From assembly GCA_044892525.1 (NCBI GenBank), contig CM097887.1:81012397-81076396 (forward strand): a stretch of DNA of 64,000 bases, given 5' to 3'. Every line of letters starts with the position of its first letter. Position 1 is the first letter of the stretch. Below, piece by piece: positions 1-59,068 of this stretch. The DNA is from Schmidtea polychroa (Eukaryota). The position numbers and the translations under genes are program-made. Below the pieces are notes generated by a model. That model did no database searches. It was given only the letters and a program-made list of their open reading frames with translations, and was not told the DNA's origin.

Positions 1-2
1 GG

Positions 3-9289: not shown

Positions 9290-9775
9290 TTTTTTCTTTG
9301 AAAATTTACTTTTATGCTTTTCTAGTCAGAAAAAATTTAATAAAAATAAATTTTAAATTAAATTAAAAAAAACTAATGTCCCCCTCCCATTTCAAAGAGT
9401 TATGGGGAGGGGTCTTGCTACTTTCCCTCTACTACACACATTTATAATTAGTTGTTTTTTTAATAATACTGAGGCTTTCATTTTTTATCATTTAAGCCCT
9501 GCCATAACGTGCTTTGGGTATAAGCCATTGTTTAATGTCTTGGATTTAATTTAATGTCAGTTTTGGCTATGATACACACACATTTATTAAAATGTAAATT
9601 TTATTTATGTAATTGAAACTTTAAATAAATGCCATTTAGGTCATTATCAATTAGTCTTTGGTGTAGAACTTCCATGTAATTTTATATACTAATTAATTCA
9701 ACTCCACAATTGTTTTGAGCATAAATTATCTAAAATAATCTGAAATTATTGTGGAATTATAATCAATAAATTTGC

Positions 9776-11053
9776 ATGTCAGATATATCAAATGAAGAAG
9801 TAGAAAGAAATTATGTCTGTCCTTGTCAACTTTATTCAGAAGATCTGGATTTTCAAATAATTGTTCTTGACAAAACGTGTTTTTTCAAGTGCTCCATTTG
9901 TTGGTATCCTTGGCCGACATTTTTACCTATCCCTTTAACTACGTGCAAATCATGCCACAATACTACATATGAAATCGAGTCCATTGTAACAGTAAATCTA
10001 ATAATTTCCTGTCGTTTCTGTAGAGGAGACATTCCAAAATCAGGCATCCGTGACCATTTCAGAAAATTAATTCAATTGCACCTCTCCAATGATAAGTCCA
10101 ATAAGCCGGCGAGAAGTGACCAAATGTGCTCGTGTAAAGACAACAACTGGAATTACCGATTCGAAAACGGGAATTTCTTTAAGTTGTGCTACAAATGCGA
10201 GAAACGTTATTTATTAACAAATGAAGACGAAATAATAAAGCATTCGAAGGAATTTTTCAATTGTTGTGATAATCCGTTTACTGGAATTTCCGGTCTCAAG
10301 TTGTCGGACCACATAATTATTCAGTGCACCTCATGTCTATCAGAAACTGTACTAAATAACAATCAATTTTTCGAAAAATTATTCTCCCAACAGAAATGGG
10401 GTAGTCCCTATTCTGACCAACCAATGCTTTCGATTAATGACCTACGAATCGGAGATCATATTGCCTATATCAGAAAATTATATGAACATCATGTTATCGT
10501 TGTATGGGTCAGTAGGTCTATGGGAACCTTCAAGCAGATTGGATTCACCCAACCTCTCAAGAAAAATGAAGGTGAGAGTCAAAATCTATTTACTGGACAA
10601 GTAGACCTTATTGAAAAGAAATTTCTAAGTATCAAAGATCCGTTGATGAGAATTAATTATCTTCCTCTTGATTGTTATCCTATTGGATATGTCGTTTGGA
10701 GAGCGTTTGACCGACTTAATGAATCTCAGTATAATCTTTTGACAAACAATTGCGAGCACATTGCAACCTGGTGCAAATATGGGAGGAATGAATGCATACA
10801 GATCCAAAGGTTAATTACAAAATATTCGAAAATCGGCCAGGAGGTTGTAAATGAGCATGTTGTACCCGTGGTCCAGAATCTCTGTGAACAGGTTGAAAAG
10901 GTATCTAAAGATGACAAAGTCATTCCTCAAATTCAAAACATTGTTGCAAAGCAGCAAGTAAATTTGAAGGGGAAATTTAAAAATGCTTTTGGATTCATTC
11001 TTGGTGAGCAGTCGGTCAGTAAGGAAGAAGAACCGATGAGTAAAAATAAGTAA
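9776..11053 (+). CDS. Intronless protein with a Cys-rich (zinc-ribbon-like) N-terminus and an LRAT/HRASLS (permuted NlpC/P60) domain
   Basis: 425-aa ORF with multiple CxC/CxxC pairs, then LRIGDHIAYIRKLYEHHVIV and YNLLTNNCEHIATWCKYG (NCEHF-type motif). Confidence 0.8.
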   Translation: MSDISNEEVERNYVCPCQLYSEDLDFQIIVLDKTCFFKCSICWYPWPTFLPIPLTTCKSCHNTTYEIESIVTVNLIISCRFCRGDIPKSGIRDHFRKLIQLHLSNDKSNKPARSDQMCSCKDNNWNYRFENGNFFKLCYKCEKRYLLTNEDEIIKHSKEFFNCCDNPFTGISGLKLSDHIIIQCTSCLSETVLNNNQFFEKLFSQQKWGSPYSDQPMLSINDLRIGDHIAYIRKLYEHHVIVVWVSRSMGTFKQIGFTQPLKKNEGESQNLFTGQVDLIEKKFLSIKDPLMRINYLPLDCYPIGYVVWRAFDRLNESQYNLLTNNCEHIATWCKYGRNECIQIQRLITKYSKIGQEVVNEHVVPVVQNLCEQVEKVSKDDKVIPQIQNIVAKQQVNLKGKFKNAFGFILGEQSVSKEEEPMSKNK

Positions 11054-31904: not shown

Positions 31905-32003
31905 ATGGGAGGAGATCGAGATCGAGGAAAAAAATATTTAAGTGGAAGTAAAAAACTTAAGAACAAATTAAAGAGTGAACTACTGGCGAAAACAAAGTAA
32001 TAG
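31905..32003 (+). pseudogene. 5' end of the hAT transposase ORF split by the Gypsy insertion
   Basis: MGGDRDRGKKYLSGSKKLK... matches the LSG.xK.K start of ZMYM1-like transposases. Across the ATAG TSD it continues (with one frameshift) as SMLKYV at 46670. Confidence 0.55.
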
Positions 32004-33150
32004 TGTTAAGATCGAAAAACGGGGACTAAAGATCCTAACACAAATGACTCCAATAGGTTAAATAAATGAAAAAAAGATATAAATGAATATAAATAAATTA
32101 TATTTAATGTGGTTGCGCGTTTAATATTTAAATTACTGAGTTAAAAACAAAACAAACTCTTTCTCTGTTTATAAATATGTATTTTATAATTTACAACAGA
32201 TATTTATAATATATGTGCAAAGAATACAAGAAAACGGATTTATTAATCCTTACTGTTTACCACAGCCTGCAAGAAATCGATGGCTCCTGTGTAGCACAAC
32301 GATCGCAATTTGACCAAAAGAGTTGGGCAAGTAAGAGGGAATGATTTTGAGGCTCCCAGGGAACACTAAAGTAAAAGATCTATACTTTGTGTTCGCTTTA
32401 ATTTTACCTATTTAACGGGATACTAGTTTATCCCTTGATAATCAAATCTACCTGAATGTTTAAACAATGTTGTAGACCAATCTTCTTTACAATTCTGTGA
32501 CGACAATATTCTTAGCTCTCGATTAATTTCTGATTTTCCTTTTCCGTCTCAACTAATTTGATGATCAATTTATAGTAGAATTTCTCCGTTGATATTGATT
32601 TGAAATTGGAGCCGGAATTTCTTCGTGTGTGGGCTATTGTTTATATCCAATTTAAACAACTCGGAGTTGCGTTGAAATTAATTAAAATAAACACAGTGAT
32701 TCTTTAATCACAATAATGAACTAATTTGATCGTAAATGTTGCACTTCTAAATTAAATAATTAACACAGTGATTCTCTAATCACGTTTTCGTTTTTTTCAA
32801 AGTGATAATAATTTTCTAAATTATTGTTTCAATTTCTTTTCGAACTTTCTTGACAGTTTTTCTCGTCCGCAAGTTATCGTCAATTTTCTCGTCTATGTTT
32901 TTATCGTCCCTTGGTTCTCGTTTGAACCAGTATTTATATCACGTTATAATTATTTATTATATTAATAGTAATTTTATAATTACTATATATAGTAATAGTA
33001 TTATCAAATATTCCTATATATTACCTAAATCTATTAATAGTAATTAATAAAACCTATCTTTTATTTTCAGTAATTTTTTATTTATACTGTTTCTAAATAT
33101 AGTAATTCTTTATTTATTTTACACTCCAGGCCCCAGGCCTATCCCTAACA
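32004..33150 (-). repeat. 3' LTR
   Basis: TGTTA...TAACA termini. It matches 45520-46666; the one difference I noticed is 32670 C vs 46186 T. Confidence 0.97.
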
Positions 33151-33168
33151 AGTCTTACCCCCTAAAAG
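33151..33168 (-). promoter_or_regulatory. Polypurine tract region
   Basis: The minus strand reads TTTTAGGGGGTAAGACT immediately before the 3' LTR TGT. Confidence 0.7.
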
Positions 33169-33398
33169 ATTTTCGTCTCGAAAACAAGACAAAACCAAGA
33201 CTAAGGAAAGGCTTTTGGTAAACAGTATTACAATAAAACATAAAAATTAATCAAATAAGACAAAACACAAAAAATATAAATGTTTCAGATCACAAATAAT
33301 GAATGTCAGAACACTGAAAAACACAACTCAAATAATAGTTAAGTCATTTTGTACACATTTGAATTTGACGACACATGTTGGGTGGCAACGCTCTTGGG

Positions 33399-35615
33399 TT
33401 AGATATCCAGATCATCGGGATCTGGGTCTGGAACTTTGTAAAGGTGCACTTCCTTTGTGCTGTAGCTATTCGCAATGACGTATTGCTGCAACAACTTCTT
33501 CTTCCTCTTCTGTAAGACATCTGGCTCAAAACTCACTGCTAAAGGCTTACCATCCAGAGCACTTGTTAATATGACTGTAGACACCACGTAAGGGATCCCG
33601 TCTACGTCATAAACATCATATTTTTGGTTATTATTGACTGCCATTCTCGTGACTGGTTGGCAGTCATACTCCTTCGCTCTGGGTTTCCATTTACTATCCG
33701 GACGTTTGTACCACATTGGTTCGAAACCGTCCACATCAACCGAAACTGGTTTCTTGATGATATTCTCCTTGGCAATCTTTAACAACTTCTGCCTTACCAC
33801 AGGTTCAGATTTAACCTTTATTGCTTCCTGCATCTCCTTAACCGGAGGTTGAAAGGCAACTTCCATAATGTCATCATCTGGTTCGCTGAATATCTTTTGA
33901 GGTTTAATAGTCCTATCTTCCGAACCGCTGGGTGTATCTTTTGTCGTTCCTTCCGACGGTTTAACAACTTTCTTCAACTTTAACTTCGATTTGTCTCTTT
34001 TAATGGGTAACATTTTCTTTAACATCTTTTTCACCTTGCCTCCTTCTGGATTTTCTTTTCTGACCGCATTATCCGATTTATCCTTTGGCTGATAGGCAGC
34101 TCCTGATGGTTGTTTAGGTGATTTTGCTGTCTCTATTTCACTAGCACATGTTTCATATTCATCTTCTTCTCCAATAGATATGGCTGGAGGCGGTGGTAGA
34201 TCCACAGGTGATTTCCTCTTGGGCTGGGGTTGCTCTGATGTAGATGGTTGCTCAGGTAATCTCCTCTTCTGCGTCATTTCCTGTTCAACTATCGCTGCTG
34301 TAGTTGCGGAAATGAATTCCTCCTGAGGTATCGTGATATGGTCTAACCATTCGTTACTGATATGTAAATAAACAGCACGTATTGCCAGTGCCTCATTGGT
34401 GACCACTAAATTCCTCGGTTCTCCGGGAACCGTGCGCAGGAAAGTCTTTGTCAGGAATCCCAATCGGTAGTGGCCATGAATCTTTGGGACTCCTCTGGTT
34501 TCCAATAGTTTATTTGCCGAAAGGTCACGAATACCCAAAATTCGCTGCACTGGTAGATTGGCTACCGAGATCAGATCTTTAAGTAAAATACCTACCAGTA
34601 TTTTCTTATCGCAGATCTTTCTTATCAGATGATGACAATCGTCTTCATCGAGATTTCCTCTAATGTCGGGTTCTTTTAACTTATATTGGTGCGTTTGGTA
34701 ATGTTTTACTGGATCTCTGGGAGTCACTACCGCACTCAATAAATTATTTCCTCTCATATCCATAATTGCGATTTGGATAATTGTCTCCTTCAATTCGATT
34801 CGGGATTTGGCAAAACCTGCCGATATGAAAATTGTAGCCTCATCCTCCTCGGCTTTGGTTAACTTCTTCCTCACGAATGATTTACACTGCTGTATATCAG
34901 CTTCATTTACATTATAAATCCAAGTTGGCTCGTTTTTGCTAACTATAGAGTATGGTTTCCTGAAGTCTAAGATTTCCACTACGATTATGGTGTCCACCGC
35001 CGCTGCCTGGATCATAATATTCCGTTCTCGTCCATCAGCGTGGTAAATCTCCAGAGTACACTGTTTTTCTAATTCAACAGGTAGCTCTAAACCCGCCATA
35101 AACACAGTAAATGGCCTATTGATCGCATGGATCCAAATGTTTTCTACTTTCGGACATGAACCATACTCTCTACATAGTTCCGCCAATTTTAATCTACCTT
35201 GGTTATTTATAACCGTTACCATCATTTGCCTTCGAGGCCCTCCTGGAAATTTGAAGTCGTTTGGAATATCCACTCTCCTGGGATAATACCAATAGTTTGA
35301 GGTGAGGTGATTCATCTTTGCTGCGACTGTGGTTCCGATGAACCGATATACATACTCTTCTTTATAGGTGCTATACACTTCAGTTTCCACTCGAGTTTGG
35401 GAATTGTACGTTGCTAATGGGTGTCGTCGATTTGCCTTGACTGGCGGCTTTGATTCTCTGCTATAATTCATTTTTCTAAAAATAAAATAATTAACAGCTT
35501 TTATCACTTTCGTGATAGACCCTCGCAGGGTAACCAAGGTCGACATACGCTGATGTCTGATTTTACCAATGCTCATTTGAGCCCACATTAGTCTACATAC
35601 TAATATAAATAACAT
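33399..35615 (-). CDS. Accessory ORF with a REX4/ISG20-like DEDDh exonuclease fold (catalytic residues degenerate) and a basic/acidic disordered C-terminus
   Basis: IQIAIMDMRGNNLLSAVVTPRDPVKHYQT...KKILVG...IRDLS aligns by eye with REX4-like ARVSIVN.G..YD.FVKP..VTDYRT...RILVGH...IRDTS. The DxE motif is replaced by SAG. The likely true start is ATG 35471. Confidence 0.7.
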   Translation of the reverse strand: MLFILVCRLMWAQMSIGKIRHQRMSTLVTLRGSITKVIKAVNYFIFRKMNYSRESKPPVKANRRHPLATYNSQTRVETEVYSTYKEEYVYRFIGTTVAAKMNHLTSNYWYYPRRVDIPNDFKFPGGPRRQMMVTVINNQGRLKLAELCREYGSCPKVENIWIHAINRPFTVFMAGLELPVELEKQCTLEIYHADGRERNIMIQAAAVDTIIVVEILDFRKPYSIVSKNEPTWIYNVNEADIQQCKSFVRKKLTKAEEDEATIFISAGFAKSRIELKETIIQIAIMDMRGNNLLSAVVTPRDPVKHYQTHQYKLKEPDIRGNLDEDDCHHLIRKICDKKILVGILLKDLISVANLPVQRILGIRDLSANKLLETRGVPKIHGHYRLGFLTKTFLRTVPGEPRNLVVTNEALAIRAVYLHISNEWLDHITIPQEEFISATTAAIVEQEMTQKRRLPEQPSTSEQPQPKRKSPVDLPPPPAISIGEEDEYETCASEIETAKSPKQPSGAAYQPKDKSDNAVRKENPEGGKVKKMLKKMLPIKRDKSKLKLKKVVKPSEGTTKDTPSGSEDRTIKPQKIFSEPDDDIMEVAFQPPVKEMQEAIKVKSEPVVRQKLLKIAKENIIKKPVSVDVDGFEPMWYKRPDSKWKPRAKEYDCQPVTRMAVNNNQKYDVYDVDGIPYVVSTVILTSALDGKPLAVSFEPDVLQKRKKKLLQQYVIANSYSTKEVHLYKVPDPDPDDLDI

Positions 35616-35675
35616 ATATATAAAATAAATAACTATATATATTTACACTTCCTAGTATATGGTGAGACTTTCCCC

Positions 35676-37670
35676 CTATACCTCGGTTTCGTAAATATTT
35701 TCCCAATAACGCATATCTCGTATATTTAATCTAAACATCCATAGGGTGGTTAAGAGCAAAATTAAAATCATGCAAATTACTCCCCCTATCATAATTAACA
35801 ATAGCCATGTTGGCGTTTTCTCCCTCGCTGCCCCCTTTAACGTATTTTGACAACTACCATTATTAATTATTTTAGTTATGCGGGGCTGTTTCACATTCGC
35901 TACCTTTCTAATACTAAACCAATCTAAAGCATTTATTCCTTTACAACCAGGAATATTTACTAATCTAGCCTTTCCTTCTTTGCTAGTTAGTTCTCCCTTT
36001 GTGGGAGGTATTAGATTTACTATTTCTTGATATATTGTATACCAACCGGTTCTCTCCGTAAATTCCAAATACGAAATATTCGCTTTAGTCACGGTATCTG
36101 GTTTGATTTTCCATCTTCTACTTAGATACGCATGGTTGAGCACTAATCTCTCGACTCGCTGGTCGTTTTCTAATATGACGATTAGCGCAATTTTATTATT
36201 CGTCCTCCAATTGTGAGTGGAAGATGTGTCATTTCTTTTCCACCGTGGATGAGTAAATCTTACTATCTGCCCGAGATATGAAATCTCTACTTTTTTGGTA
36301 AATTTTTCAGTCTTCAAAATCCATGCTGCTTTATCTACACAATCTCCTCCGTCTGCAAAAACGTTTGGATCTGCAAAAAATGTTTTGATTTCTAATAGAT
36401 AACTTGTATTCGGCATAAGTCCTTCTATTACTTTTACTCGATCCCATGTATTCAAGTGAAATGATATCCCTCTTTCAGCAGCTACCAAATATAAATCATA
36501 TCTATGCCATTGTATATTCGTTAAATGAAATCTGAACGCTCTATCTGTTCGTTGATATTCGATATCTGGATGTTGACTGGCTTTAGGTGTGAATACCTCG
36601 AATGCTTGTCCAATCATCATAACACAACTAATCACTGCTAGAAATGTAACTGTTTTCGGTACTTGCCGAGATCGTAAGGGGTATCGTTCCGGTTGTCCTT
36701 TTAGGATACTTTTGTATGATTCCAACGTTTTCTTTTTCGATTTCTTATCTATTTCGAATTCATTGATTTCTGATTTTGGTTTCTCCTTTTCTGGTGGGGC
36801 TATCTTTTTACATCTGTTTGCATGAACCATTATCGGTTCTGCTTTTCTGTTTGCCACTAACTGCAAGACTAAATTTGTTTCTGTGACTTTCAAAATTTGA
36901 TACGGCCCTTTGTAATTTCTCATTAATTTTGGAGATAAACCTTTTTTGTTGTAATGTCCTTCTAACATGACATAATCTCCTACCAAAAACCCATGATCCT
37001 TCGTTTTACGATCATGATATTCCTTCATCGTTTCTTGGTTATAACGAATGTTCAAACCTGCTTTCTCCCAGGCTTCTTGCATTCTCTCTCTCATCTCGAA
37101 TAAGTAATTTCCCTCATCACAATTCTGTGAAGCTTTCGGATAAAATATAAGATCTACTGGCATCTTACTATGCCTTAAATACATCAGATAGAAAGGTGTT
37201 TCTCCTGTTACTGAATGAACAGCATTTCTGTACGCAAACAAACACGACGGTACTGGCATTGGTTTCAATGGAACATGTGGTTTCCTGCCTGTGTTCCTTC
37301 TGGTTATACATATCTTACATGATTGACACCACTTTTTAACATCATCTTTCATATCTGGCCAGAAGTATTTCATTTTTAATCTTGACAGTGTATGTCTAGC
37401 TGAGAGATGTCCTCCCAGTGCTCCGTCGTGGTATTGTAATAATAGTGATTCTCTGTATTTCTTTGGTACTAATATTACATTATCCCTTGATTCAACGTAT
37501 TTGATTAGCCCTTCTTCCAATATGAATTTATCTTTATGTTTCTCCCAATATTTCTGAAATTCATTTGGTATGGCCTTTGCTTCTATAGCTTGTCTGATCA
37601 TATTGATTTCGTCATCATTTTTCTGTGCTTCTACTATGTCGCTCAAAGTGTTAGCCTCTCTTGTTAGCAT
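35676..37670 (-). CDS. Integrase (HHCC zinc finger and C-terminus, catalytic core deleted) fused to a signal-like segment, FN3-like ectodomain, TM and tail YETEV
   Basis: YHDGALGGH...CQSCKIC zinc finger. PVPS joins directly to CLFAYR with no DDE core. GPY motif, TVTFLAVISCVMMIGQA segment, IEGLMPNTSYLLEI (FN3 signature) and TM WLLLIMIGGVICMILILLL. Confidence 0.85.
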   Translation of the reverse strand: MLTREANTLSDIVEAQKNDDEINMIRQAIEAKAIPNEFQKYWEKHKDKFILEEGLIKYVESRDNVILVPKKYRESLLLQYHDGALGGHLSARHTLSRLKMKYFWPDMKDDVKKWCQSCKICITRRNTGRKPHVPLKPMPVPSCLFAYRNAVHSVTGETPFYLMYLRHSKMPVDLIFYPKASQNCDEGNYLFEMRERMQEAWEKAGLNIRYNQETMKEYHDRKTKDHGFLVGDYVMLEGHYNKKGLSPKLMRNYKGPYQILKVTETNLVLQLVANRKAEPIMVHANRCKKIAPPEKEKPKSEINEFEIDKKSKKKTLESYKSILKGQPERYPLRSRQVPKTVTFLAVISCVMMIGQAFEVFTPKASQHPDIEYQRTDRAFRFHLTNIQWHRYDLYLVAAERGISFHLNTWDRVKVIEGLMPNTSYLLEIKTFFADPNVFADGGDCVDKAAWILKTEKFTKKVEISYLGQIVRFTHPRWKRNDTSSTHNWRTNNKIALIVILENDQRVERLVLNHAYLSRRWKIKPDTVTKANISYLEFTERTGWYTIYQEIVNLIPPTKGELTSKEGKARLVNIPGCKGINALDWFSIRKVANVKQPRITKIINNGSCQNTLKGAAREKTPTWLLLIMIGGVICMILILLLTTLWMFRLNIRDMRYWENIYETEV

Positions 37671-37679
37671 GAAGATTGT

Positions 37680-40600
37680 TCATTCTAATCTTCCTTCCTT
37701 TATATCTTCTAACTCAGGCTCTTGTTCCATTCGTGATAATGCATCTGCATTACCATTAGCTTTACCTTTACGATATACTATTTCGATATTATATGGCTGT
37801 AATCTCAATGCCCATCTTACTAATTTTGATGCTTCATCCCTATGTTTTAATAGCCATTGCAATGGTCTATGATCCGTATAGAAAATTACCTTTCTGCCCC
37901 ATAGGTAATGACTAAATTTTTCCACTGCAAATACTAATGCTAATGCTTCCAATTCTATTACAGCATAACTTTTTTCGTGTGGCTTCAATCCACGACTTGC
38001 ATATGCTACTGCGTACTCATCGCCAATTTCGTCTTTCTGTCCCAAAACGGCACCTATACCTCTTGTGCATGTATCGGTCATCACCATGAATTGTCTTTTA
38101 AAATCTGGAAATCGTAGAATTGGTGGTTTGCATAGTGCATCTTTTAACTTATCGAATGCCTGTTGCTGATCTTCTCCCCATAAAAATTTTATACCTTTCT
38201 TTTCTAAGGTAGTTAGAGGAAAAGCTATTGCTGAAAAATTTCGTATAAATTTCCGATAGTATCCCGTCAACCCTAAAAATCCTTTGATTTGTTTTACATT
38301 CACTGGTTGTGGGAAATTCTTTACTTTATCCGTGTTCGCCGGATCTGGTCTTACGCAATCGTGTGATATTACATGCCCCACGTAAATCACTTCCGATTCT
38401 GCCCATTTGCATTTGCTTGGCTTTACTTTCAGGTTTGCCATAATCAATCTTTTGAAAATGTCTTCTAGATGTTCCAAATGTTTATCTAAATCTTCCGAGA
38501 AGATGATAATATCGTCTATATATACCATTGCGTGATGTGCATCCATCAACATGATATTCATTGCTCTCTGAAAAGTTGGAGGGGCTCCTTTTAATCCAAT
38601 CGGCATTACTAAGTATTCAAAATGATCACTACTTGTAGAAAATCCTGTCATAGGAATTGAGTCTTCGCTCATCTTTATTTGATAAAAACCTTTCTGTGCA
38701 TCCATCACAGTAAACAACTTTGAATTTTTCATTTTATCATAAATGTAGTCTAGCAAAGGTAGCGGGTGATTATCACTAACTGTTTGTTCATTTAATTTCC
38801 TATAGTCATTACATAATCTGACTGAGCCGTCTCTTTTAGCTACAACCACCAAAGGTGAGGAATATGGAGATTTACTGGGTCTGATTATATTATATTTTTG
38901 CATTAATTTAATTTGTTTTTCAACGGACCCTTGTATGCTTTGAGGTATTCTGTACGGGCGAATTTTTATCGGTTTATTTTCTGTTAATTTAATCTCATGC
39001 TCTAGAATATTAACTTGCCCTAAGTCATATTCGTGTTTTGCGAAAACTTGGTCATATTTACGTAATAATTGATTGACTCTGATATTTTCTTTTCTAGATA
39101 AAGCTTTACTATCGCAGCTCGGTGCGTCGTAATATTCGATATCAGGATCTCGTTCATCCTCTTCTACTGCTAATATCGATTCATGCTCTTTCTGCATGTT
39201 AGAAAGTTGTATCACTTTACCCACTCTAGTCTCTGGGTATAATCTCAATGATTTGCTCGCTAGATTTGTTAATCTAATCGGGATCCTTCCTCCCCGTACT
39301 GTTGCCAAGTTTTGCACCATAGGCGTTTTATACCTATTTACGAACTGCTCACTGGGTTCGAAAATAACATCTCCTTCCACCTCTTGGTGTGTTGCTACGA
39401 AACAAACTGTTTCGGTCCTCGGTGGTATTGTCACCGTTCTATCCAAAAACACTACATCCACACTGTAGGTTTTCCGTTTTCTACCAGTCATTTTCACTAA
39501 TTCACCTGTTGCACAATCGAATACAATATCTTTTAACTTTTTCAATATATCCATTCCCACGATATATTCTGCCATACATTGTCTAGTGACCTTGATATCG
39601 TGTCTAAATTTTTGATCACACAACCTTAATTCGCAATCTAATGTTCCGATAACATTGATAGGTTGTCCATTTGCTCCCGATGCAACAAGTAATGTCGGCA
39701 CTATTGCTTGTAATTCTTTTTCATTTAATAAATTTGCTTCGATCAATGTCAAATCTGATCCTGAATCAATAATGGCATGTACCGTATGCCTGTTAACTTT
39801 TAATTTAATCGTAGGTTTATGAGTCTTTTTACCCATATTGACCATTAATATTGTTGAGATTCCTCGAATATTGTCTCTGAACTTTTGTTGATCATCACTA
39901 TCTTTGTCATTTTCTGATTTTATTTCATCTTTATACTCTTCCTTTAGCCGTTTCAACGTGCTAAATGGATATTTCGGTACCATCTCAAATACTGATGTAC
40001 CCAAGGGTGGCATTGTCTCGAACTTCATTTTATACGTTGGGTATGAGGTAGATGGTGATATATCTGTATTCGTTCTAAACTCGAGCCTCTTTAACATTTC
40101 CTCTTCAACTCGTTCTGGTATTATCTTTTTTCTACCCTCGTATGGAGACAAGTAATTTACGGGCCACTCCTGCCGTTTCCTCCTTTTTGCTTTAACAGGG
40201 TACTGTTGTAAAGTACTGTTTTCAAAATTTTGAAATTTCGGTTTTTTGTTGTCTGGTTTTATTGAGGTGTTGTCTGAGGTCTCATAGCCCTCTAGGTTAC
40301 CTCCCTTGTCAGAATTGTCATCGTCTCGATGACTAGGTTCATACATTATTAACTCATGCTTCTTTATAGTTTGTCTCTTCATTCTTTTAATCTCTTTATT
40401 ATGATGATGAAATACTGCAAAATCTGCACAAACTGGACACATTCCTAGTAGCAACTTCCAAGACCATCCCCCGATCTTGAAGATACTATAGGTAGAAAAT
40501 AATTGCGATATGATTATTTTCAATATCATCACTATTGCATATATACCTGAACATCGTGCTACAAAAATGCCAAAGCTTGTAAATCTACCCCAGATTTTCC

Positions 40601-42578
40601 GTATTACATTGGATGCAGCTTGTTTATAATGTTCTGGTCCAAATAATAAGTTATAGTCCGGTTTTCCATCATATGATTGATAGATTCTTGTTATTATTTC
40701 CGTCACTCCCCTATCTCTGATTTGGGGAAATACGATTGCTCTCCGAGCTTCTTCAATATCTTCCGGATTATATACTCCTCCTTTTGACATCTCGTTTAAT
40801 GGTTGAAACTCCATTTTAGTTTCTAACTTTGTCGCTTGAAGCACTTCAACTGGTTTTGAAGGCGGTTTTCTATCTGGCAACGAAATCCAAATATTGTTAA
40901 TTTTGTATAATGGTGACATTGCTAGATTGCAAATTGCTGTTAATGGTGAGGTATCCTCCTTTAATAGCTGGTGTGATACTGGCATCAGGAATCTCAATTT
41001 TCCTTTATATTTTACTGGTAACTCCAATGTACATCGATCATATTTGGTAATTTCCACCTCTATTGCTTTGCACTGATAGCTATAAATTGCTTCGCCCAAA
41101 ATTCTGCCGAATGTTCCTTCCTCTGTCAACATTGGCATTATTAGATCCGGATTAGCTATAGATATTGCTAATCTATTCCGTATTATTTCCCGATTTAAAC
41201 GACAGTCGTTCAGGATCACTTCCTGATAGACATCTAATAATTGTTTCTGCAGATCATGATACAAGAAATCAATCTTATTATTGATATACTTGGCTATTTT
41301 AATATCTGATAGATGCAATGATTCTGCTGCTGGAACATACTTGTATGCTAAGTATATTCCCTTGTAGTTGGTTTCAAATATTGGTACACCACATTTCGTT
41401 GTCTGTTTCTTTCTGACTAAACGAATTGCATCTGTTGGGTCCTTGGAGACTAATACTACTGCTGTGCTTTTCTCCGGTACTACTTCCTTTTTCGTTTTGT
41501 GAGTTATCTTGTCTCCCCAACCACTTTGTTGTGAATCCTGAGACGTAAAACTTTTCCCATCTAGCCTTGAAAATACTACCTTTTTCAGGTATCCTAAATC
41601 ACAAAAATCTCTCATTGATTGGTACGTTAATACTGCTAAACTGGTTTTACAATAACCATATTTCACGTTGCATTCTGGATGAGACATCATTTTTCCCGTG
41701 GATATTTCGAAAGTTCCTTCGTACTCTATCAGCTCTACTGTGTAGTCCTCAACTGTTACCACATAGCTTACTACATTAGAACCTCTAACTTTCTTTCTAC
41801 CATGACAAGAACCATCTTCTGCTATCGGTCCTCCCCGGGTAATAGTTATACCCAACTTTTTCCCTTCTTCTGCGGTAATTGTTACCTCATGATCTATTTT
41901 AACTGTTTTTGACCGAAAAGCATTTACACAATCCTCTGGTGGGATGATTAACGGTATAGGAATGAGTTTAGCTCCTAAAAATGCTGAATAACTATTCGAT
42001 CCACAGTAATATTCGAACGTCGCTCTCTGTATTCGACATTCCCTCACTCTGGTTCTGTAAAACTCTGTTTGCTGATAAACGTGATATTCTACGTCTTCCC
42101 TTTTTGCAACTTTATCTGGATATGCTTCCTTGCATTCCACTGTATCAACTAATGAGTAGATTCGCGATAGTATTGGTTCACTACAATCATATGCCGTTAG
42201 GGAATTTGTCTGTCGCAGTATTCCCATCATTACCAACAACATCATCATCCAACTAGTAAATCCACCTGTTCCCCGTGGACTACTTGAAATATTTTCTGTC
42301 AACAATTCTTCATTTAATTCATATTTTCCTTTCGTTTCTTTTATATCCCAAAACTTGTGCTCAGTCATCCATGTTCTGAAATTTACTTCGATGATATCAG
42401 TTAGTTTGTCTATGGCTGCTGGAATTTTCGACGAATCATCTTTAATTATGCTCAATGCATTTTTAAACATTAAGGCTAGAATCGTTATCATTTTTCCTTT
42501 CGTCAGGCCTTCATCTATGAATTGTCCTGCTATTTCGAACATCTCCTGTTCCGTCGTGCTTCCTGGAATCTTTTCCAT
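37680..42578 (-). CDS. pol: Polyprotein: chuvirus-like fusion glycoprotein (~42248-40400), linker, aspartic protease, reverse transcriptase, RNase H
   Basis: 1632 aa. Signal MMMLLVMMGILRQTNS then AYDC and GEAIYSYQC..EV......CTLELPV, a TM near 40590-40410, PR IIDSGS, RT LCNDYRKLN and YIDD, RNase H MTD/ELEALA/YTDHRPL/ADALSR. Confidence 0.92.
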   Translation of the reverse strand: MEKIPGSTTEQEMFEIAGQFIDEGLTKGKMITILALMFKNALSIIKDDSSKIPAAIDKLTDIIEVNFRTWMTEHKFWDIKETKGKYELNEELLTENISSSPRGTGGFTSWMMMLLVMMGILRQTNSLTAYDCSEPILSRIYSLVDTVECKEAYPDKVAKREDVEYHVYQQTEFYRTRVRECRIQRATFEYYCGSNSYSAFLGAKLIPIPLIIPPEDCVNAFRSKTVKIDHEVTITAEEGKKLGITITRGGPIAEDGSCHGRKKVRGSNVVSYVVTVEDYTVELIEYEGTFEISTGKMMSHPECNVKYGYCKTSLAVLTYQSMRDFCDLGYLKKVVFSRLDGKSFTSQDSQQSGWGDKITHKTKKEVVPEKSTAVVLVSKDPTDAIRLVRKKQTTKCGVPIFETNYKGIYLAYKYVPAAESLHLSDIKIAKYINNKIDFLYHDLQKQLLDVYQEVILNDCRLNREIIRNRLAISIANPDLIMPMLTEEGTFGRILGEAIYSYQCKAIEVEITKYDRCTLELPVKYKGKLRFLMPVSHQLLKEDTSPLTAICNLAMSPLYKINNIWISLPDRKPPSKPVEVLQATKLETKMEFQPLNEMSKGGVYNPEDIEEARRAIVFPQIRDRGVTEIITRIYQSYDGKPDYNLLFGPEHYKQAASNVIRKIWGRFTSFGIFVARCSGIYAIVMILKIIISQLFSTYSIFKIGGWSWKLLLGMCPVCADFAVFHHHNKEIKRMKRQTIKKHELIMYEPSHRDDDNSDKGGNLEGYETSDNTSIKPDNKKPKFQNFENSTLQQYPVKAKRRKRQEWPVNYLSPYEGRKKIIPERVEEEMLKRLEFRTNTDISPSTSYPTYKMKFETMPPLGTSVFEMVPKYPFSTLKRLKEEYKDEIKSENDKDSDDQQKFRDNIRGISTILMVNMGKKTHKPTIKLKVNRHTVHAIIDSGSDLTLIEANLLNEKELQAIVPTLLVASGANGQPINVIGTLDCELRLCDQKFRHDIKVTRQCMAEYIVGMDILKKLKDIVFDCATGELVKMTGRKRKTYSVDVVFLDRTVTIPPRTETVCFVATHQEVEGDVIFEPSEQFVNRYKTPMVQNLATVRGGRIPIRLTNLASKSLRLYPETRVGKVIQLSNMQKEHESILAVEEDERDPDIEYYDAPSCDSKALSRKENIRVNQLLRKYDQVFAKHEYDLGQVNILEHEIKLTENKPIKIRPYRIPQSIQGSVEKQIKLMQKYNIIRPSKSPYSSPLVVVAKRDGSVRLCNDYRKLNEQTVSDNHPLPLLDYIYDKMKNSKLFTVMDAQKGFYQIKMSEDSIPMTGFSTSSDHFEYLVMPIGLKGAPPTFQRAMNIMLMDAHHAMVYIDDIIIFSEDLDKHLEHLEDIFKRLIMANLKVKPSKCKWAESEVIYVGHVISHDCVRPDPANTDKVKNFPQPVNVKQIKGFLGLTGYYRKFIRNFSAIAFPLTTLEKKGIKFLWGEDQQQAFDKLKDALCKPPILRFPDFKRQFMVMTDTCTRGIGAVLGQKDEIGDEYAVAYASRGLKPHEKSYAVIELEALALVFAVEKFSHYLWGRKVIFYTDHRPLQWLLKHRDEASKLVRWALRLQPYNIEIVYRKGKANGNADALSRMEQEPELEDIKEGRLE

Positions 42579-42644
42579 AGCTTTCTTGACTTTTTCTGCA
42601 ATTTTGTCAACATTAACACTTTTATCTTTCTTGATTTGCCTTAA

Positions 42645-43919
42645 TCACCATGTTTCCGTTTTATCACTAGCGTCTCCAACGCTTTTATCGATTTGGCTAG
42701 CTATCCCTGCTAGAGCCTGCTTAGTTACATTTTGTATTGTAACTGGTTTTAGAAGTTCTCTTGGAGGTGGGTTCATTTGACTTTTCCTCGGTCTACCCCT
42801 TCTCTCCCTTTTCTTTTTATTCTCGACTAATTTCGGGCTCACTCTTTCTCTTGGTGGCTCGACTTGTCGCGATGTACTAGCTCCGATATTTGTTTCATCT
42901 TGATTTAAATGTACTTCATTATCTTCTTCTGTAGGAAATATTTCGACCAACTCGTCTTCAGTGTTATCAAGTTCCTTGAGATACTTATCTATCTCTTCAT
43001 CTAAATCCACTGTAGTTACGGGTTCCTGGTGAGTATTCCCGTCTACTTGTTTTTGCTCAGGATGTACTGTTTCATCCTCCATTTCTGCATTATCTGGCAA
43101 TCTCAAAGTTGCCCATTCAATCTCTGGAAACTCTACCAGTAATATTAATACAACTGTTTCCTCATTGGGAAAACATCCAACATCTACTAGAAATTCGTCG
43201 TCATCCACCTGACAACCATGTATCATTATGAGGAATGACTCTTTTAATATTTCTGATATCCTTTTTCTCAGTTTCTTTACCCTATGATAACATGAGAATT
43301 GTTGTATCAGGTGTCCTCTCCTGGGTATCCTGATATCTAACATCACTGGACCTTGTCTACCTTCCAAATGTCTAATAGCATGTCCATTTTTAATCAACAG
43401 CATCTTTGCTTGTGTCTGGAATTGTGATGTCTCTTTTACTAAAGGCACCACCAATGGCATTATCTCTCTAAGAGTATCTACTGGGATTCGCAACTCCAGT
43501 ATCCAATCCATTATCATCTTAATGGCTTCCCCATCTCTTGGGTTTTTCATCAGTTCAATTCCCAATCTATGTGGTACGGCTGATATTTGATTTAATTGAT
43601 CAATTTCAATCTCGCTTATAGTAAGGACATTATCCAAGTCCACTACTGTAACAGTTTCCTTGTGAAACTTTGCTTTTATAACCATATTTTTCCCTGGTAG
43701 TATACCACAATCTAACAAGGTTTCTCCCTCTAATAATCTTTCTCCCAATAAATATAGTTTGCATCTCTGTTGAGGTTTTACCACAGAAACTCTCTTTGCC
43801 AATGCTTCTACCTTTTCACTTGGGTTAATTGTATATCTACGAAAACAACCTTTTGGGAAAGATACAAAAATTGTAGAATCCTCCAGATTCTCTCTTTGTT
43901 TCCAATTTAGGCCAATATT
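42645..43919 (-). CDS. Segment with two ubiquitin-like domains, an acidic linker and an AT-hook/NLS
   Basis: The frame is open from 43919. UBL1: TIFVSFPKG...INPSEKVEAL...KLYLLGERLLEGETLLDCGILPGKNMVI. UBL2: VMLDIRIPRRG...IMIHGCQVDDDEFLVDVGCFPNEETVVLIL. Also KKKRERRGRPRK. Confidence 0.7.
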   Translation of the reverse strand, partial: NIGLNWKQRENLEDSTIFVSFPKGCFRRYTINPSEKVEALAKRVSVVKPQQRCKLYLLGERLLEGETLLDCGILPGKNMVIKAKFHKETVTVVDLDNVLTISEIEIDQLNQISAVPHRLGIELMKNPRDGEAIKMIMDWILELRIPVDTLREIMPLVVPLVKETSQFQTQAKMLLIKNGHAIRHLEGRQGPVMLDIRIPRRGHLIQQFSCYHRVKKLRKRISEILKESFLIMIHGCQVDDDEFLVDVGCFPNEETVVLILLVEFPEIEWATLRLPDNAEMEDETVHPEQKQVDGNTHQEPVTTVDLDEEIDKYLKELDNTEDELVEIFPTEEDNEVHLNQDETNIGASTSRQVEPPRERVSPKLVENKKKRERRGRPRKSQMNPPPRELLKPVTIQNVTKQALAGIASQIDKSVGDASDKTETW

Positions 43920-44549
43920 TCACAGAATTTCTCTCAATTCTGGATAATATTCCTCATTTCTGTCTAACTCTGATATGATATCTATTACTTTGTCAACCTC
44001 ATTCTCATTAACGGGGTTTAAACGAATATTTTCTAATTTCTGTCTCATTTCTCTTTGCCATACGCTCTTGCGTAATAGTATTTTTCTACAGTCATCGATG
44101 GGATTTCTTTCCTCTTTCGATGCTTCTCGAACCTTTATTGGTTCACTACCACACTCACCTCGCATGGATGATGTGGCTATAAGAACTTCCGGTTCACTGA
44201 CCGAAGCCCTTGTTTTTTCCAAAACTCCTGTTGGAACAATTTCATTAGCTACTGGATCCATGTCCAAAGCCTTACGATTTTTAACTGGTGAAACCGGTAA
44301 ACCTTCTATTTCTCTGTTGGCTTCTGGCTCCATGGCCACAGCCACTAGATTTTTCCTGGGTGAAACCTGTAAACCCTCACAGACCTCTGGTTCCATGACC
44401 ATAGTCTTTTCCTCTTTGTCCTCCCTTGGACTCTCTTGAAGCATCAACACTTCAAGTTCTACATAAGTTATTATTATTATTATTACCACGAAAATTCCTA
44501 TCGGGGCTTCTATTTCTACTACTGTTATTATTTGAATTATTCCCCCCAA
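43920..44549 (-). CDS. Acidic low-complexity linker ORF overlapping the gag end in the +1 frame
   Basis: Repeats of MEPE..EGL.VSP.KN. It shares the frame of all downstream polyprotein segments. Confidence 0.65.
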   Translation of the reverse strand: MGGIIQIITVVEIEAPIGIFVVIIIIITYVELEVLMLQESPREDKEEKTMVMEPEVCEGLQVSPRKNLVAVAMEPEANREIEGLPVSPVKNRKALDMDPVANEIVPTGVLEKTRASVSEPEVLIATSSMRGECGSEPIKVREASKEERNPIDDCRKILLRKSVWQREMRQKLENIRLNPVNENEVDKVIDIISELDRNEEYYPELREIL

Positions 44550-45381
44550 AACTAGCTTTACAAACTGACGCTACATGTCCCTTGCGCTTGCATTTCTCAC
44601 AATTTAGGTCCGAAATTCTACAGTTTGATGCCACATGATTATTTCTCCCACACTTGGTACATAATTTGTCACCTGGAGAATTATTCCTACTTTTACAATC
44701 TTTTGACATATGTCCCTTTTTATGACAATTAAAACACTCAATGTCTGACTTGTTGCTACTAATTGCAAAATTGTTTGACTTCTCAATGCTACTCTCAATT
44801 AAACACGCTTTACGAGTTAATTCCTCTAAATTATCTCCTATGTGTAAACTGAGTGCATTTCTCATTGCTGACGATAACCCAGACCAAAACTGATCTTTTA
44901 CTAATGCTCTAGTTGCATCATTCCAGGCTGCCCTATTACCAAATGCTCTCTCTGCCAACATCATTATTTGATATGAAAATTCCCCAACATGCTCACCCGA
45001 ATTTTGTCGCCAATTATAAAATTGTTGTCTCAGCACTCTAGTTGCATCCCCCGGTAATATTCTGTTTTGTAACGCTAATCTTAATACATTCCATTCAACT
45101 GGATGGTCGGCTATTATAACATCGTTATATATTTCCCGCGCCATCCCTTTTAAATATAAAGGTAATCTCAAAATCATTACCGGTTCCGGGAATCCTAATG
45201 CTCTGGCTAACTGAAAATATTCGGACATAAATTCTGGAAACTCCCCTGGGTTTCCACTAAATGGTTTAATCGGAATTGTTGGGTATCTCATAAAATCTAC
45301 CGCTGGTGGTTGAGCTACTGGCACATTATTATTTTGTAAATTATTCTCATTTAGATTTTGTAAATTATTTATCTCTGCCAT
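44452..45381 (-). CDS. gag: Gag: capsid plus three CCHC zinc knuckles
   Basis: IKPFSGNPGEFPEF capsid start, LPLYLKGMA motif, and knuckles CFNCHKKGHMSKDC, CTKCGRNNHVASNC and CEKCKRKGHVASVC. Confidence 0.93.
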   Translation of the reverse strand: MAEINNLQNLNENNLQNNNVPVAQPPAVDFMRYPTIPIKPFSGNPGEFPEFMSEYFQLARALGFPEPVMILRLPLYLKGMAREIYNDVIIADHPVEWNVLRLALQNRILPGDATRVLRQQFYNWRQNSGEHVGEFSYQIMMLAERAFGNRAAWNDATRALVKDQFWSGLSSAMRNALSLHIGDNLEELTRKACLIESSIEKSNNFAISSNKSDIECFNCHKKGHMSKDCKSRNNSPGDKLCTKCGRNNHVASNCRISDLNCEKCKRKGHVASVCKASFGGNNSNNNSSRNRSPDRNFRGNNNNNNLCRT

Positions 45382-45498
45382 TATTTGCTGGTTTCTATTA
45401 CCTGGTCTTAAATTTATTACCCTTCTATTTCTTAACTCAATGATTCAAAAAGATGTTTGCCTTTTATAAATAAAATTCTTATTCCCCCGAAAATTGCT

Positions 45499-45516
45499 AT
45501 CACGTCGGGCTCACCA
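45499..45516 (-). promoter_or_regulatory. Primer-binding site, tRNA-Trp type
   Basis: TGGTGAGCCCGACGTGAT lies 3 nt from the 5' LTR and differs by one base from the vertebrate tRNA-Trp PBS TGGTGACCCCGACGTGAT. Confidence 0.85.
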
Positions 45517-45519
45517 AAA

Positions 45520-46666
45520 TGTTAAGATCGAAAAACGGGGACTAAAGATCCTAACACAAATGACTCCAATAGGTTAAATAAATGAAAAAAAGATATAAAT
45601 GAATATAAATAAATTATATTTAATGTGGTTGCGCGTTTAATATTTAAATTACTGAGTTAAAAACAAAACAAACTCTTTCTCTGTTTATAAATATGTATTT
45701 TATAATTTACAACAGATATTTATAATATATGTGCAAAGAATACAAGAAAACGGATTTATTAATCCTTACTGTTTACCACAGCCTGCAAGAAATCGATGGC
45801 TCCTGTGTAGCACAACGATCGCAATTTGACCAAAAGAGTTGGGCAAGTAAGAGGGAATGATTTTGAGGCTCCCAGGGAACACTAAAGTAAAAGATCTATA
45901 CTTTGTGTTCGCTTTAATTTTACCTATTTAACGGGATACTAGTTTATCCCTTGATAATCAAATCTACCTGAATGTTTAAACAATGTTGTAGACCAATCTT
46001 CTTTACAATTCTGTGACGACAATATTCTTAGCTCTCGATTAATTTCTGATTTTCCTTTTCCGTCTCAACTAATTTGATGATCAATTTATAGTAGAATTTC
46101 TCCGTTGATATTGATTTGAAATTGGAGCCGGAATTTCTTCGTGTGTGGGCTATTGTTTATATCCAATTTAAACAACTCGGAGTTGTGTTGAAATTAATTA
46201 AAATAAACACAGTGATTCTTTAATCACAATAATGAACTAATTTGATCGTAAATGTTGCACTTCTAAATTAAATAATTAACACAGTGATTCTCTAATCACG
46301 TTTTCGTTTTTTTCAAAGTGATAATAATTTTCTAAATTATTGTTTCAATTTCTTTTCGAACTTTCTTGACAGTTTTTCTCGTCCGCAAGTTATCGTCAAT
46401 TTTCTCGTCTATGTTTTTATCGTCCCTTGGTTCTCGTTTGAACCAGTATTTATATCACGTTATAATTATTTATTATATTAATAGTAATTTTATAATTACT
46501 ATATATAGTAATAGTATTATCAAATATTCCTATATATTACCTAAATCTATTAATAGTAATTAATAAAACCTATCTTTTATTTTCAGTAATTTTTTATTTA
46601 TACTGTTTCTAAATATAGTAATTCTTTATTTATTTTACACTCCAGGCCCCAGGCCTATCCCTAACA
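45520..46666 (-). repeat. 5' LTR
   Basis: Near-identical copy of 32004-33150, adjacent to the PBS. Confidence 0.97.
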
Positions 46667-46670
46667 ATAG

Positions 46671-55798: not shown

Positions 55799-58700
55799 CA
55801 GTAGCGGATTTAGCTATAGGCGTGGGGGGGGGCGAATCGCCCCTCCACGCCCCTGTTGGATCCTAATTGGCGCCCCCCAAAGATATTTTATGAATTTTTT
55901 CTCTTATTACAGTTTTGTCTGTGTACAAAGTTCAACTGGATTTAAGCAACTCCAGCTGTTATGCTGCATCATATTAATAATATTACATAGCTCCAGTGAA
56001 TAGCGACTGTTTGAAGTTTTTAAGCTTGTATAGTGTTTGTACATAAATCTAACCATAATAATTATTGTCAATTTGGACTTTTTTGACAAACAAATTATTG
56101 CGTTACTATTGAAATATTAAAATAATATTCGATATTGAATTAAAAAAAAATTTAAATTATAACCATGGCTGAGTCAACTGGTGATACTAATAAAAGCAAA
56201 GCAATTACCCAATTAAGTGGATCATCTAGGCGTAAATTGGCAAAGGAAGCCAGTCTCAAGGCAGATGCTAGCAAATATATTAAGTTAACATCATTTATAA
56301 CTAAACAGTCTAAACTGCCAGTAGTTCAATCAACTGAAGTTTCTGCTAAAAATGAGTATGTATTTGATGATCAACACCCATCTACGCATTCGAGTTCCTG
56401 TGCTGAGCCTGCTGAGACAGAAACATCATCTGAAGTTCTTGTTGAAGATGAGCAAGTAGTTGATGAACAACACCCAGCTATACATTCATGTGCAGAGAAT
56501 ATTGAGACGGTAACATTACCTGCTCAGGGCTTGAAACATAATCAGGGTGATTCAGAATTTGATACAGTGGAAAAACAACTTGCTTCAGATATTTTACAAG
56601 AACAACTTCTTCCTCAATCCGACTTTCCTACAGATCCAGGACTCTACATTAATAAAAGCATAAGCTCGAAACTGATACGAAAATTGTTTGAAATCGGACC
56701 ATGTCAACCTGGACTCAATGAACCATTTCAATTTCCGACAGATGAATTGGAGCGCAAGTTTCAAATTTCTTGGTACACAAAATGTTTTTGAAAAGGTTGT
56801 ATGAAGGAGGAAAGAAATTGGCTTGTCTATTCACCAACAAATCAAAAAATGCATTGCCATGCTTGCTGGTTATTCGCTGATTGTAAAACTGAAAATTATA
56901 GCAAGGAATGGTCCGACCCAAATTTTGGAGTTTATAACTGGAAAAAAGGCATGGAAAAAATCGTTAAACATGAAACTTCCAATCAACATCAAAGTGCAAT
57001 ATGTCAATATTTGCTGGCTAAATATCGCATTTCAAATGATAAAAATGTGATATCTGGTTTGATCAGTCAGGAGCGTTATCAAGTGGAAAAAATAGAGAAG
57101 TTTTGAAACGAATGGTAGATGCAACGTTGTTTTTAGCAAAACAAGGTTTGCCATTTAGAGGACACAGAGAACATTCAGGCTCTGACAGGTGTAGTAATAC
57201 TGGAAATTTTCGTGAATTGCTATTTTTATTGGCTAAATATGATTCCACTTTGGACAATCATCTAAAGTTTGAAAAGAAAAATGAACTTTATTTATGTCAT
57301 GATGTACAAAATGACCTAATTCAATCACTTGCCTCAGAATTATCCGCAAATATTGATAATGAAGTTAGGTCTGCACAATTCTTTTCTCTAATTGTTGATT
57401 CAACAATTGATATATCTAGAGTTGATCAGATGTCAGTTTCTTTAAGATTAGTGTTAAAATCAGGACAAGTTGTTGAACGATTTATAGACTTCTACACGTT
57501 GGAAAACAGTAATGCTGCAGCATTTTCTGATATATTATTAACGGAGTTACAAAAGCGAAAATTCACATAACACTTTGTAGAGGACAGGCATATGATGGTG
57601 CCTCTGTGATGTCTGGGATTAAAAATGGTCTTCAAACTAAGATAAAGACACTTTCACCAAATTCCATCTTTGTTCACTGTTGTTCTCATGCATTTGGTGA
57701 CTATTGAAGCAATGTCTCTTAACAGTGATGTTCAGTTGTTTTTTGGTACAACAGAAAAATTGTATACTTTCCTTACATCAAGTCTACCACGACTACATAT
57801 TCTCGAAGAACATCAGAAATCTCGATATGAATCGACAGTAGATACTCTAAAACGACTTTCTGATACAAGATGGGCAAGCCGAAAGCATGCAGTTGATGCA
57901 GTTGTTGGATCATTCTCCGCTATTATATCTACTCTAGAAGATATAAATTTTGGGGAATCAAAAGAACACAAAGAAAGTGTCAGGCAGAAGCTATGGGACT
58001 ATCTATTTTGATAAAATATTCTTTTGTTTTTCTGATGCTATTTCTACAAAAGCTGTTAGATAATATCTTTGTGTTATCAAACTATTTGCAACGAAAGGAC
58101 ATTGATATTGCGTTTGCAAAACAATTGATTTATGTTGCCAGAAATAAGTTTGCTGATGTGAGAAGTTATAAAGCTTTTGAAAGTCTAAATGTTGCTGTAA
58201 AATCATTTATTATCAAAAATTGTTCCTTACTAGATGTTGAAACAGAATTTAAAGAAAAGCGAGTTGCAAAAAGGAAACGCATGGCAGGTGAACTTAACAG
58301 AGATGAAAGGGTTGATGATCCAACTACACGCTTCAAATGTGAAACGTATTTCACTGCCTTGGATACACTTGTAACACAACTATATGAACGTTTTAATGAT
58401 TTTCATAACACTGTTGCTTTATTCTCCTGTCTTGATCCATCACAAATATCAGAAGAAAATAAAGAATCTTTTCAAAATTTATGTGACATTTACAAAAACG
58501 ATATTAATATTGAAGAAGCAATCCTAGAATATGATACTTTCAAATACGTGTATGCATCAATACGCCCATTACTGTCTTGTGAACTACAACTTAAAGAGGT
58601 GCTGCCTTTCTTGGTTGAAAAACAGATGGCACCAGGACTTCCCAATTTGGCAATTCTCTATAAAATATACTTGACTCTTCCTGTTACATCTACTACTGCT

Positions 58701-59068
58701 GAAAGAAGTTTCAGTAGAATGAAAATCACCAAAAATTATTTGCGATCAACAATGACAAACGAACGTCTGTCTGGATTAGCATTAATTTCAATAGAACGCG
58801 AACTGCCTGAGAACATTGACTCTGAATCGACTATAAATCGTTTTGCTTCAATGAAATCACGCAGAAAGCAATTTAAATAATAAAAAAAACTTGTATGTTT
58901 GTTACATCAATAAATTTACTAGCATAAATTTACTGAATATAATGCTTTTTAATAATATTAGTATTCACTCAATACTCGCGAAAATAAGTAGTACCATCTT
59001 CATAATTTGTGGCGCCCCCTGAAAATTTTCCTCGCCCCCCCACGCACCTAAATCTAAATCCGCCACTG
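55799..59068 (+). mobile_element. Full-length hAT element (3270 bp) with a disrupted ZMYM1-like transposase (56165-58880)
   Basis: TIRs CAGT(A/G)GCGGATTTAG and a perfect 8-bp TSD CTACTGAG. Transposase motifs RNWLVYS, GLPFRGH, LIVDSTIDIS, SDTRWASR and TSTTAERSFS are broken by stops and frameshifts. Confidence 0.95.

Follow-up and report, generated by a model that had tools for sequence, protein, structure and literature searches.

We found that positions 32004–46666 of the window, i.e., the whole 64,000-nucleotide stretch of Schmidtea polychroa DNA analyzed here (GCA_044892525.1, contig CM097887.1, positions 81,012,397–81,076,396), are occupied by a minus-strand Ty3/gypsy element that is recently inserted yet broken. 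It is a defective copy of an already known kind and not the new lineage announced in the original prediction, a reading of the letters alone, as the headline architecture has largely been published (PMC6431247; PMC13524379; here and below, statements on published elements refer to the accessible portions of the sources). With a probability of roughly 0.6, we consider it a young defective GAG-ENV-POL copy whose siblings encode a polyprotein predicted to be cut into a capsid, a gB-type fusogen, the enzymes and an attachment or targeting protein with fibronectin type III (FN3) domains. Judging from sequence, the family likely represents an enveloped retroelement with a predicted fusogen and a separate attachment or membrane-targeting protein. 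The FN3-transmembrane (TM) protein encoded after the integrase and a separate open reading frame (ORF), ORF2, are real and apparently unpublished additions to this known design.

The survey of the genome assembly (781 Mb) gave 150 scored reverse transcriptase (RT) matches. Of these, 65 have an identity of 91% or more, including 11 in open frames of 3513–3516 amino acids (aa). In the siblings, a single frame encodes Gag, two ubiquitin-like (UBL) domains, a Bcl-2-like domain, Env, aspartic protease (PR), RT, RNase H (RH), integrase (INT) and the membrane protein, in this order, and is followed by a separate 775-aa ORF2. These counts bear out the earlier view of a family and not a one-off chimera, and the anticipated order of Gag, UBL, UBL, glycoprotein, PR, RT, RH, INT, FN3-TM protein and a separate exonuclease-like ORF was recovered, while the Bcl-2-like domain and the cupin/AlkB-shaped domain of ORF2 had both been overlooked. 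The continuous frame proposed from the linker to the FN3 protein holds for the siblings, but in the window copy it is divided into four stop-separated pieces. Gag, initially taken for a frame apart, is held by the siblings inside the same 3516-aa frame; a Gag-Pol frameshift is ruled out, since Gag and Pol are read there in one frame. Nearly identical copies in which RT and integrase are complete and the frame is unbroken thus exist in the family (11 copies), the window copy not being one of them. The long terminal repeat (LTR) pairs of all seven closest-subfamily copies compared are 99.8–100% identical. Upstream of the second membrane protein, the remnants of the polyprotein in the window copy are as follows:

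44455–45381, minus strand: Gag with CCHC knuckles (Pfam zf-CCHC, 4.9e-10; Retrotrans_gag, 0.048)
43923–44468, minus strand: linker from Gag to UBL1, terminating at a private stop (43920–43922)
43665–43877, minus strand: ubiquitin-like domain 1 (Pfam ubiquitin, E 0.0066, below the cut-off)
43104–43352, minus strand: ubiquitin-like domain 2, weak (profile matches to ISG15, E 0.01, and the UHRF1 UBL, E 0.05)
42264–42644, minus strand: Bcl-2-like domain (profile built from seven family members, match to Bcl-xL, E 1.1e-5)
40302–42257, minus strand: Env, chuvirus/gB-type class III ectodomain (Pfam PF24664, Monjiviricetes_fusion, 6.8e-82)
42201–42257, minus strand: Env signal-like segment (read by eye, under the hydropathy threshold)
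40512–40568, minus strand: Env TM with a tail after it (hydropathy)
39525–39824, minus strand: aspartic protease (DSG; Pfam RVP, 3.3e-7)
39060–39524, minus strand: conserved PR-RT interval, in the same place as the dUTPase-like motif of the element Burro
38355–38957, minus strand: reverse transcriptase (YIDD; Pfam RVT_1, 3.2e-30)
37791–38180, minus strand: RNase H (Pfam, 6.8e-34), with a private stop downstream (37680–37682)
36663–37679, minus strand: integrase, zinc finger and GPY part kept, 396 nucleotides (nt) of the catalytic core gone near 37247

The UBL1 profile matches ubiquitin/NEDD8 entries of the Protein Data Bank (PDB), the best being di-ubiquitin chains (2.8e-5), and the Bcl-2-like domain is also recognized in a sister family (Pfam Bcl-2, 0.011). 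Scans of metagenome and viral contigs with the Env pattern gave no match. The PR-RT interval has no Pfam or PDB match, any dUTPase-like identity being hypothetical. In most families, an RY[PN]LR motif (window 36669–36686) is found shortly ahead of the second signal segment; it may be akin to the motif by which foamy virus Gag is tethered to chromatin, or else mark a cleavage site.

The second membrane protein forms the tail of the Pol frame and consists of these parts:

35679–36662, minus strand: second membrane protein (signal-like segment, two FN3-fold domains, stalk, TM, short tail)
36594–36662, minus strand: its signal-like segment
about 36003–36572, minus strand: its two FN3-fold domains (structure model)
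35748–35804, minus strand: its TM (hydropathy), then about 20 residues ending in ETEV

The model of its ectodomain is all-beta, with fibronectin, tenascin and Tie2 FN3 domains as the best structural matches (Z 8–9.6); single domains superpose with a root mean square deviation (rmsd) of 2.4–3 Å across about 80 residues. When 1.84 billion proteins were searched with the tail, a single match was obtained, to a membrane protein with FN3 repeats (E 2e-6). Pfam and PDB sequence searches gave no match and a word-index search no homologue. A tail ending in a TM comes after integrase in families of both RT clades, which are 50% apart. At the C-terminus of the polyprotein, the pattern [ST]-x-[VIL], that of class I PDZ-binding motifs, is present in 9/10 copies examined, and the short cytoplasmic tail also holds a Tyr-containing motif. 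Between subfamilies, conservation is lowest in the tail (59% identity, vs. 98% for RT and 93% for Env). Its ratio of nonsynonymous to synonymous substitution rates (dN/dS) of 0.22 indicates purifying selection; the value for Env is 0.04, and segments other than the tail and the UBL region range between 0.01 and 0.06. We observed that subfamilies A and B are mosaic (window 33200–44470 vs. loci L013/L014/L029): the synonymous rate (dS) is 0.14–0.22 in Gag, UBL, RT and RH, rises to about 0.75 for Env and PR and exceeds 1.1 in late integrase and the tail. This unevenness suggests module exchange through recombination.

According to the proposed mechanism, the polyprotein would make four passes through the endoplasmic reticulum membrane (at the signal preceding Env, the Env TM, the signal following integrase and the last TM), and signal peptidase together with the protease of the element would release its parts, the UBL and Bcl-2-like ones remaining cytosolic. 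Env would perform fusion and the FN3 protein would be displayed beside it, binding a host surface partner, with the PDZ-type end sorting it to the membrane domain of particle budding or cell contact; the UBL, Bcl-2-like and ORF2 modules would blunt host responses. The idea put forward at the outset, a virus-like element that combines a fusogen (here predicted to be of class III) with another surface protein and with modules for host interaction, finds support as a prediction in sequence, modelled fold and conservation. Several points weigh against such a reading. A single frame would give Pol in the same amounts as Gag, which is unusual for retroviruses. The ectodomain model is of low confidence (mean pLDDT 56, pTM 0.48), Z values near 8–9 can reflect a common fold, and the best-scoring stretch of the FN3-repeat protein match is its TM segment. 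The tails of the two clades show no significant alignment (hhalign probability 1.5%), which leaves position, topology and the end motif as grounds for homology, and this motif is missing from 1/10 polyprotein ends. Relaxed constraint is not peculiar to the tail either, given the dN/dS of 0.23 for the UBL region, and the ORF2 model is of low confidence as well (mean pLDDT 49, pTM 0.41, exonuclease part below 50).

The main alternative, less probable, is that the FN3-TM protein acts outside particles, as a host-modulating receptor mimic in the expressing cell, be it a signalling decoy, a polarity or junction tether or a superinfection block. Its receptor-like build, with a short tail, a Tyr-containing motif and a PDZ-type end, would suit such a role, its neighbors include other host-modulating cargo (UBL, Bcl-2-like), and poxvirus and iridovirus FN3 proteins are among its Foldseek viral matches. 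Yet, it would be made in a fixed ratio to Env from one frame, and its ectodomain diverges far faster than Env; receptor-binding proteins are often fast-diverging. An element moving inside cells only, with Env, the FN3 protein and ORF2 as decaying passengers, is unlikely. The broken state of the window copy, the window-clade ORF2 devoid of catalytic residues, the absence of ORF2 from three families and the lack of a report on planarian particles among the four papers listed by a literature search are in line with this explanation, but the dN/dS values of Env and of the tail, the ORF2 frames kept open and 38% identical across families, and the layout retained between clades of 50% RT identity speak against it. 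A one-off chimera or misassembly is the least probable explanation, to the point of being nearly dismissible: breaks do occur in the window copy and the genome has tandem arrays of element fragments, but the same order recurs in all 11 siblings with an open frame and throughout the families fetched, and contigs of independent runs cover all 30 bins in 3/4 runs. In two public runs guessed to be RNA, 30/30 and 6/30 bins were covered, which speaks neither for nor against expression.

Going beyond the reading of a fusogen with a separate attachment or targeting protein, we tentatively suggest that the flatworm elements could be enveloped viruses in which one polyprotein provides a two-protein entry, i.e., a conserved gB-type fusogen and a swappable, fast-evolving FN3 protein for tropism and PDZ-dependent choice of the budding site, with a cupin-DEDDh accessory against RNA defence that is active or dead by lineage; we hold this fuller scenario possible but less probable than its alternatives taken together. 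If true, this would be the first retroelement with a herpes- or paramyxovirus-style split between attachment and fusion, env-bearing retroelements being assumed to need a single surface protein. A variable second surface protein kept across deep clades suggests a way for the gB-type fusogen of a retroelement to locate the cells it targets; planarians are open to RNA interference, imaging and proteomics for testing it.

The nearest published relatives come from planarians. In Burro, env is placed between gag and pol within the same frame, along with Ubi2/SUMO-like and BCL2-like motifs, and its Env is related to mononegavirus fusion glycoproteins (Arkhipova and Yushenova, 2019; PMC6431247). Burro/GYPSM1 and the window family share one polyprotein with Gag, Ubi2/SUMO-like and BCL2-like parts, Env, PR, RT, RH and IN. 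However, Burro is larger, with more than 30 kb and an ORF of 4873 aa, as compared to 14.7 kb for the window element and 3516 aa for its siblings, and carries MATH, BIR and ankyrin domains, none of which was found by Pfam in the window element; the accessible description of Burro mentions neither a post-integrase membrane protein nor an exonuclease (PMC6431247). GAG-ENV-POL elements with a gB-type Env are known from Platyhelminthes, Nematoda and Bryozoa, including six from Schmidtea mediterranea (Smed_errantivirus_1-6, in regions of 14.5–18 kb) which, like the window element, are multi-copy and have Env between gag and pol (Chary and Hayashi, eLife 2026; PMC13524379). The Env fragments of all six visibly resemble Env of the window element. 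Smed_errantivirus_4 looks closest; 28 of the first 34 aligned residues of its Env fragment match the window element by eye. The tRNA primer of the Smed elements is unassigned, in contrast to tRNA-Trp for the window element, and the terms ubiquitin, exonuclease and fibronectin are absent from the main text of that paper, whose figures and bait files may annotate more (PMC13524379). Among more distant systems, the bdelloid LTR elements Juno and Vesta also possess, behind pol, an accessory ORF for a 3'-5' exonuclease, with one catalytic Asp replaced by Glu in active-looking versions, but theirs is a DEDDy, RNase D-like ORF3 (Rodriguez et al., PMC5408684), while ORF2 is of the ISG20L2/RNase_T-like DEDDh type, is joined to a cupin-shaped domain and, in the window clade, is apparently dead. 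The mosquito BEL/Pao element Anakin likewise has a chuvirus-type glycoprotein, but belongs to another superfamily and host (PMC7642597); an orchid Ty3/gypsy element encodes an AlkB-type domain in yet another host (PMC9289625), whereas ORF2 of the window has no conserved HxD...H metal site; and Troyka differs by CG...CG termini and a 3-bp target duplication (PMC12440569), as opposed to TG...CA and 4 bp here. No published description of the post-integrase membrane protein or the ORF2 cassette was found in a search that left figures, Repbase and most subscription journals outside.

ORF2 comprises the following segments:

33399–35642, minus strand: ORF2 (747 aa between stops; 775 aa in intact siblings)
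about 34935–35438, minus strand: N-domain, cupin/2OG-oxygenase-shaped (structure model)
34344–34850, minus strand: DEDDh exonuclease fold without catalytic residues (profiles), with a long charged tail next to it

The N-domain is modelled as a double-stranded beta-helix, with a prolyl hydroxylase as the top structural match (Z 9.6, rmsd 3.0 Å, 136 residues), followed by the AlkB family; Foldseek adds weak matches to replicases of plant viruses and to oxygenases of phages. Sequence searches of Pfam and the PDB with it gave no match, and the HxD...H metal triad is not conserved, a single His being invariant. The ORF2 profile matches ISG20L2 (E 0.002) as well as ORFs positive for PF00929 that belong to sister elements of the same genome (E 3e-23), and ORF2 is open at 761–775 aa across families. 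The pseudo-nuclease initially proposed applies to the window clade, where D-x-E and H..D are missing from 4/4 sequences, but not to the sister clade, where they are present in 9/9; the exonuclease is likely, from these residues, catalytically dead in the former and intact-looking in the latter. A word-index search of public proteins with window-clade ORF2 gave no homologue, while sister ORF2 as query retrieved eight proteins with the same two-domain cassette (D-x-E in 8/8, H..D in 7/8). The probable ancestor of ORF2 is a cupin-plus-DEDDh RNA exonuclease cassette that was active, and the window-clade version of ORF2 would serve as a non-catalytic RNA-binding or decoy protein. No exonuclease ORF is seen in fetched copies of the family of the relative at window 1–1517 and of its two nearest (3/3 families). 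Within one genome, the exonuclease thus looks active in some families, dead in others and is missing from a third set, which provides a natural series.

The ends of the insertion are defined by these features:

45520–46666, minus strand: 5' LTR (1147 bp, TG...CA ends, 1 mismatch vs. the 3' LTR)
32004–33150, minus strand: 3' LTR (comparison with the 5' LTR)
32000–32003 (left) and 46667–46670 (right), no strand: 4-bp target-site duplication (sequence)
45499–45516, minus strand: primer-binding site (complementarity over 18 nt with the 3' terminus of host tRNA-Trp)
33152–33163, minus strand: purine-rich tract adjoining the 3' LTR, a likely polypurine tract

The near-identity claimed for the LTRs is confirmed by a difference of 1/1147 bases. 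TG...CA LTRs, a target duplication within 4–6 bp, a tRNA primer site, the PR-RT-RH-INT order, gypsy-type RNase H and an H2C2 integrase are all traits shared with Ty3/gypsy (Metaviridae). Element boundaries are fixed by contigs of two public runs (X2, X3) that join the left flank straight to 46666; they do not prove insertion polymorphism, because the left flank itself is repeated. The genes for tRNA-Trp, the primer tRNA of the element, form a tandem array with a 284-bp period at C4:55.02–55.05 Mb and beyond (locus L043), and their pattern has 821 matches genome-wide.

The long frame of the window copy is split by TGA stops into pieces of 216, 424, 1654 and 667 aa, and three deletions are seen relative to the siblings, one behind Gag near 44468 (about 350 nt), one ahead of the Bcl-2-like domain near 42645 (about 33 nt) and one in the integrase core near 37247 (396 nt), the first of which puts Gag out of frame. 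The stops at 43920–43922 and 37680–37682 are private to this copy (0/11 and 0/14 aligned other copies, respectively). Programmed readthrough is ruled out, as these two stops are private and the third coincides with the junction of a deletion; a count of 8/8 at that site is an alignment artefact. A defective sublineage marked by the integrase deletion is likewise ruled out, the junction near 37247 being spanned by the window copy only (1/40 scored matches). The window copy cannot make integrase itself and is not autonomous; it was likely mobilized by proteins of its siblings or damaged soon after insertion.

Further families were retrieved through genome searches with the tail and exonuclease sequences. 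The RT tree, built of 14 RTs from the S. polychroa genome without reference elements, has two clades about 50% apart, one with the window element (3 rows, 100/100) and the other of 11 rows (100/100). The latter includes a partial element at the window edge:

3–1517, plus strand: sister-clade element, integrase end and second membrane protein (remainder upstream of the window, locus L019)

This is the relative formerly placed at 1–1933; it is indeed present (window 1–1517, the rest in L019), but with RT 50–51% identical to the window element it represents the other clade and a family whose fetched copies show no exonuclease ORF. Elsewhere in the genome, three open-frame copies lie in tandem, 14,218 bp apart, apparently with common LTRs (C2:100.87–100.91 Mb), and internally deleted copies without RT and integrase (loci L065, L067) have retained Gag, some of Env, and ORF2. 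A unit of about 2.87–2.88 kb from the tail and ORF2 region is found in long tandem arrays of dozens of copies (C3:106.49–106.52 and 107.05–107.23 Mb; locus L032); this retroelement-derived satellite is possibly a small-RNA source. Other features of the window are a 427-aa open frame with an LRAT/NlpC-P60-type domain (9770–11053; Pfam 2.4e-10) and a broken hAT-type DNA transposon (56156–58880) with matches to DUF4371 and hAT dimerisation domains.

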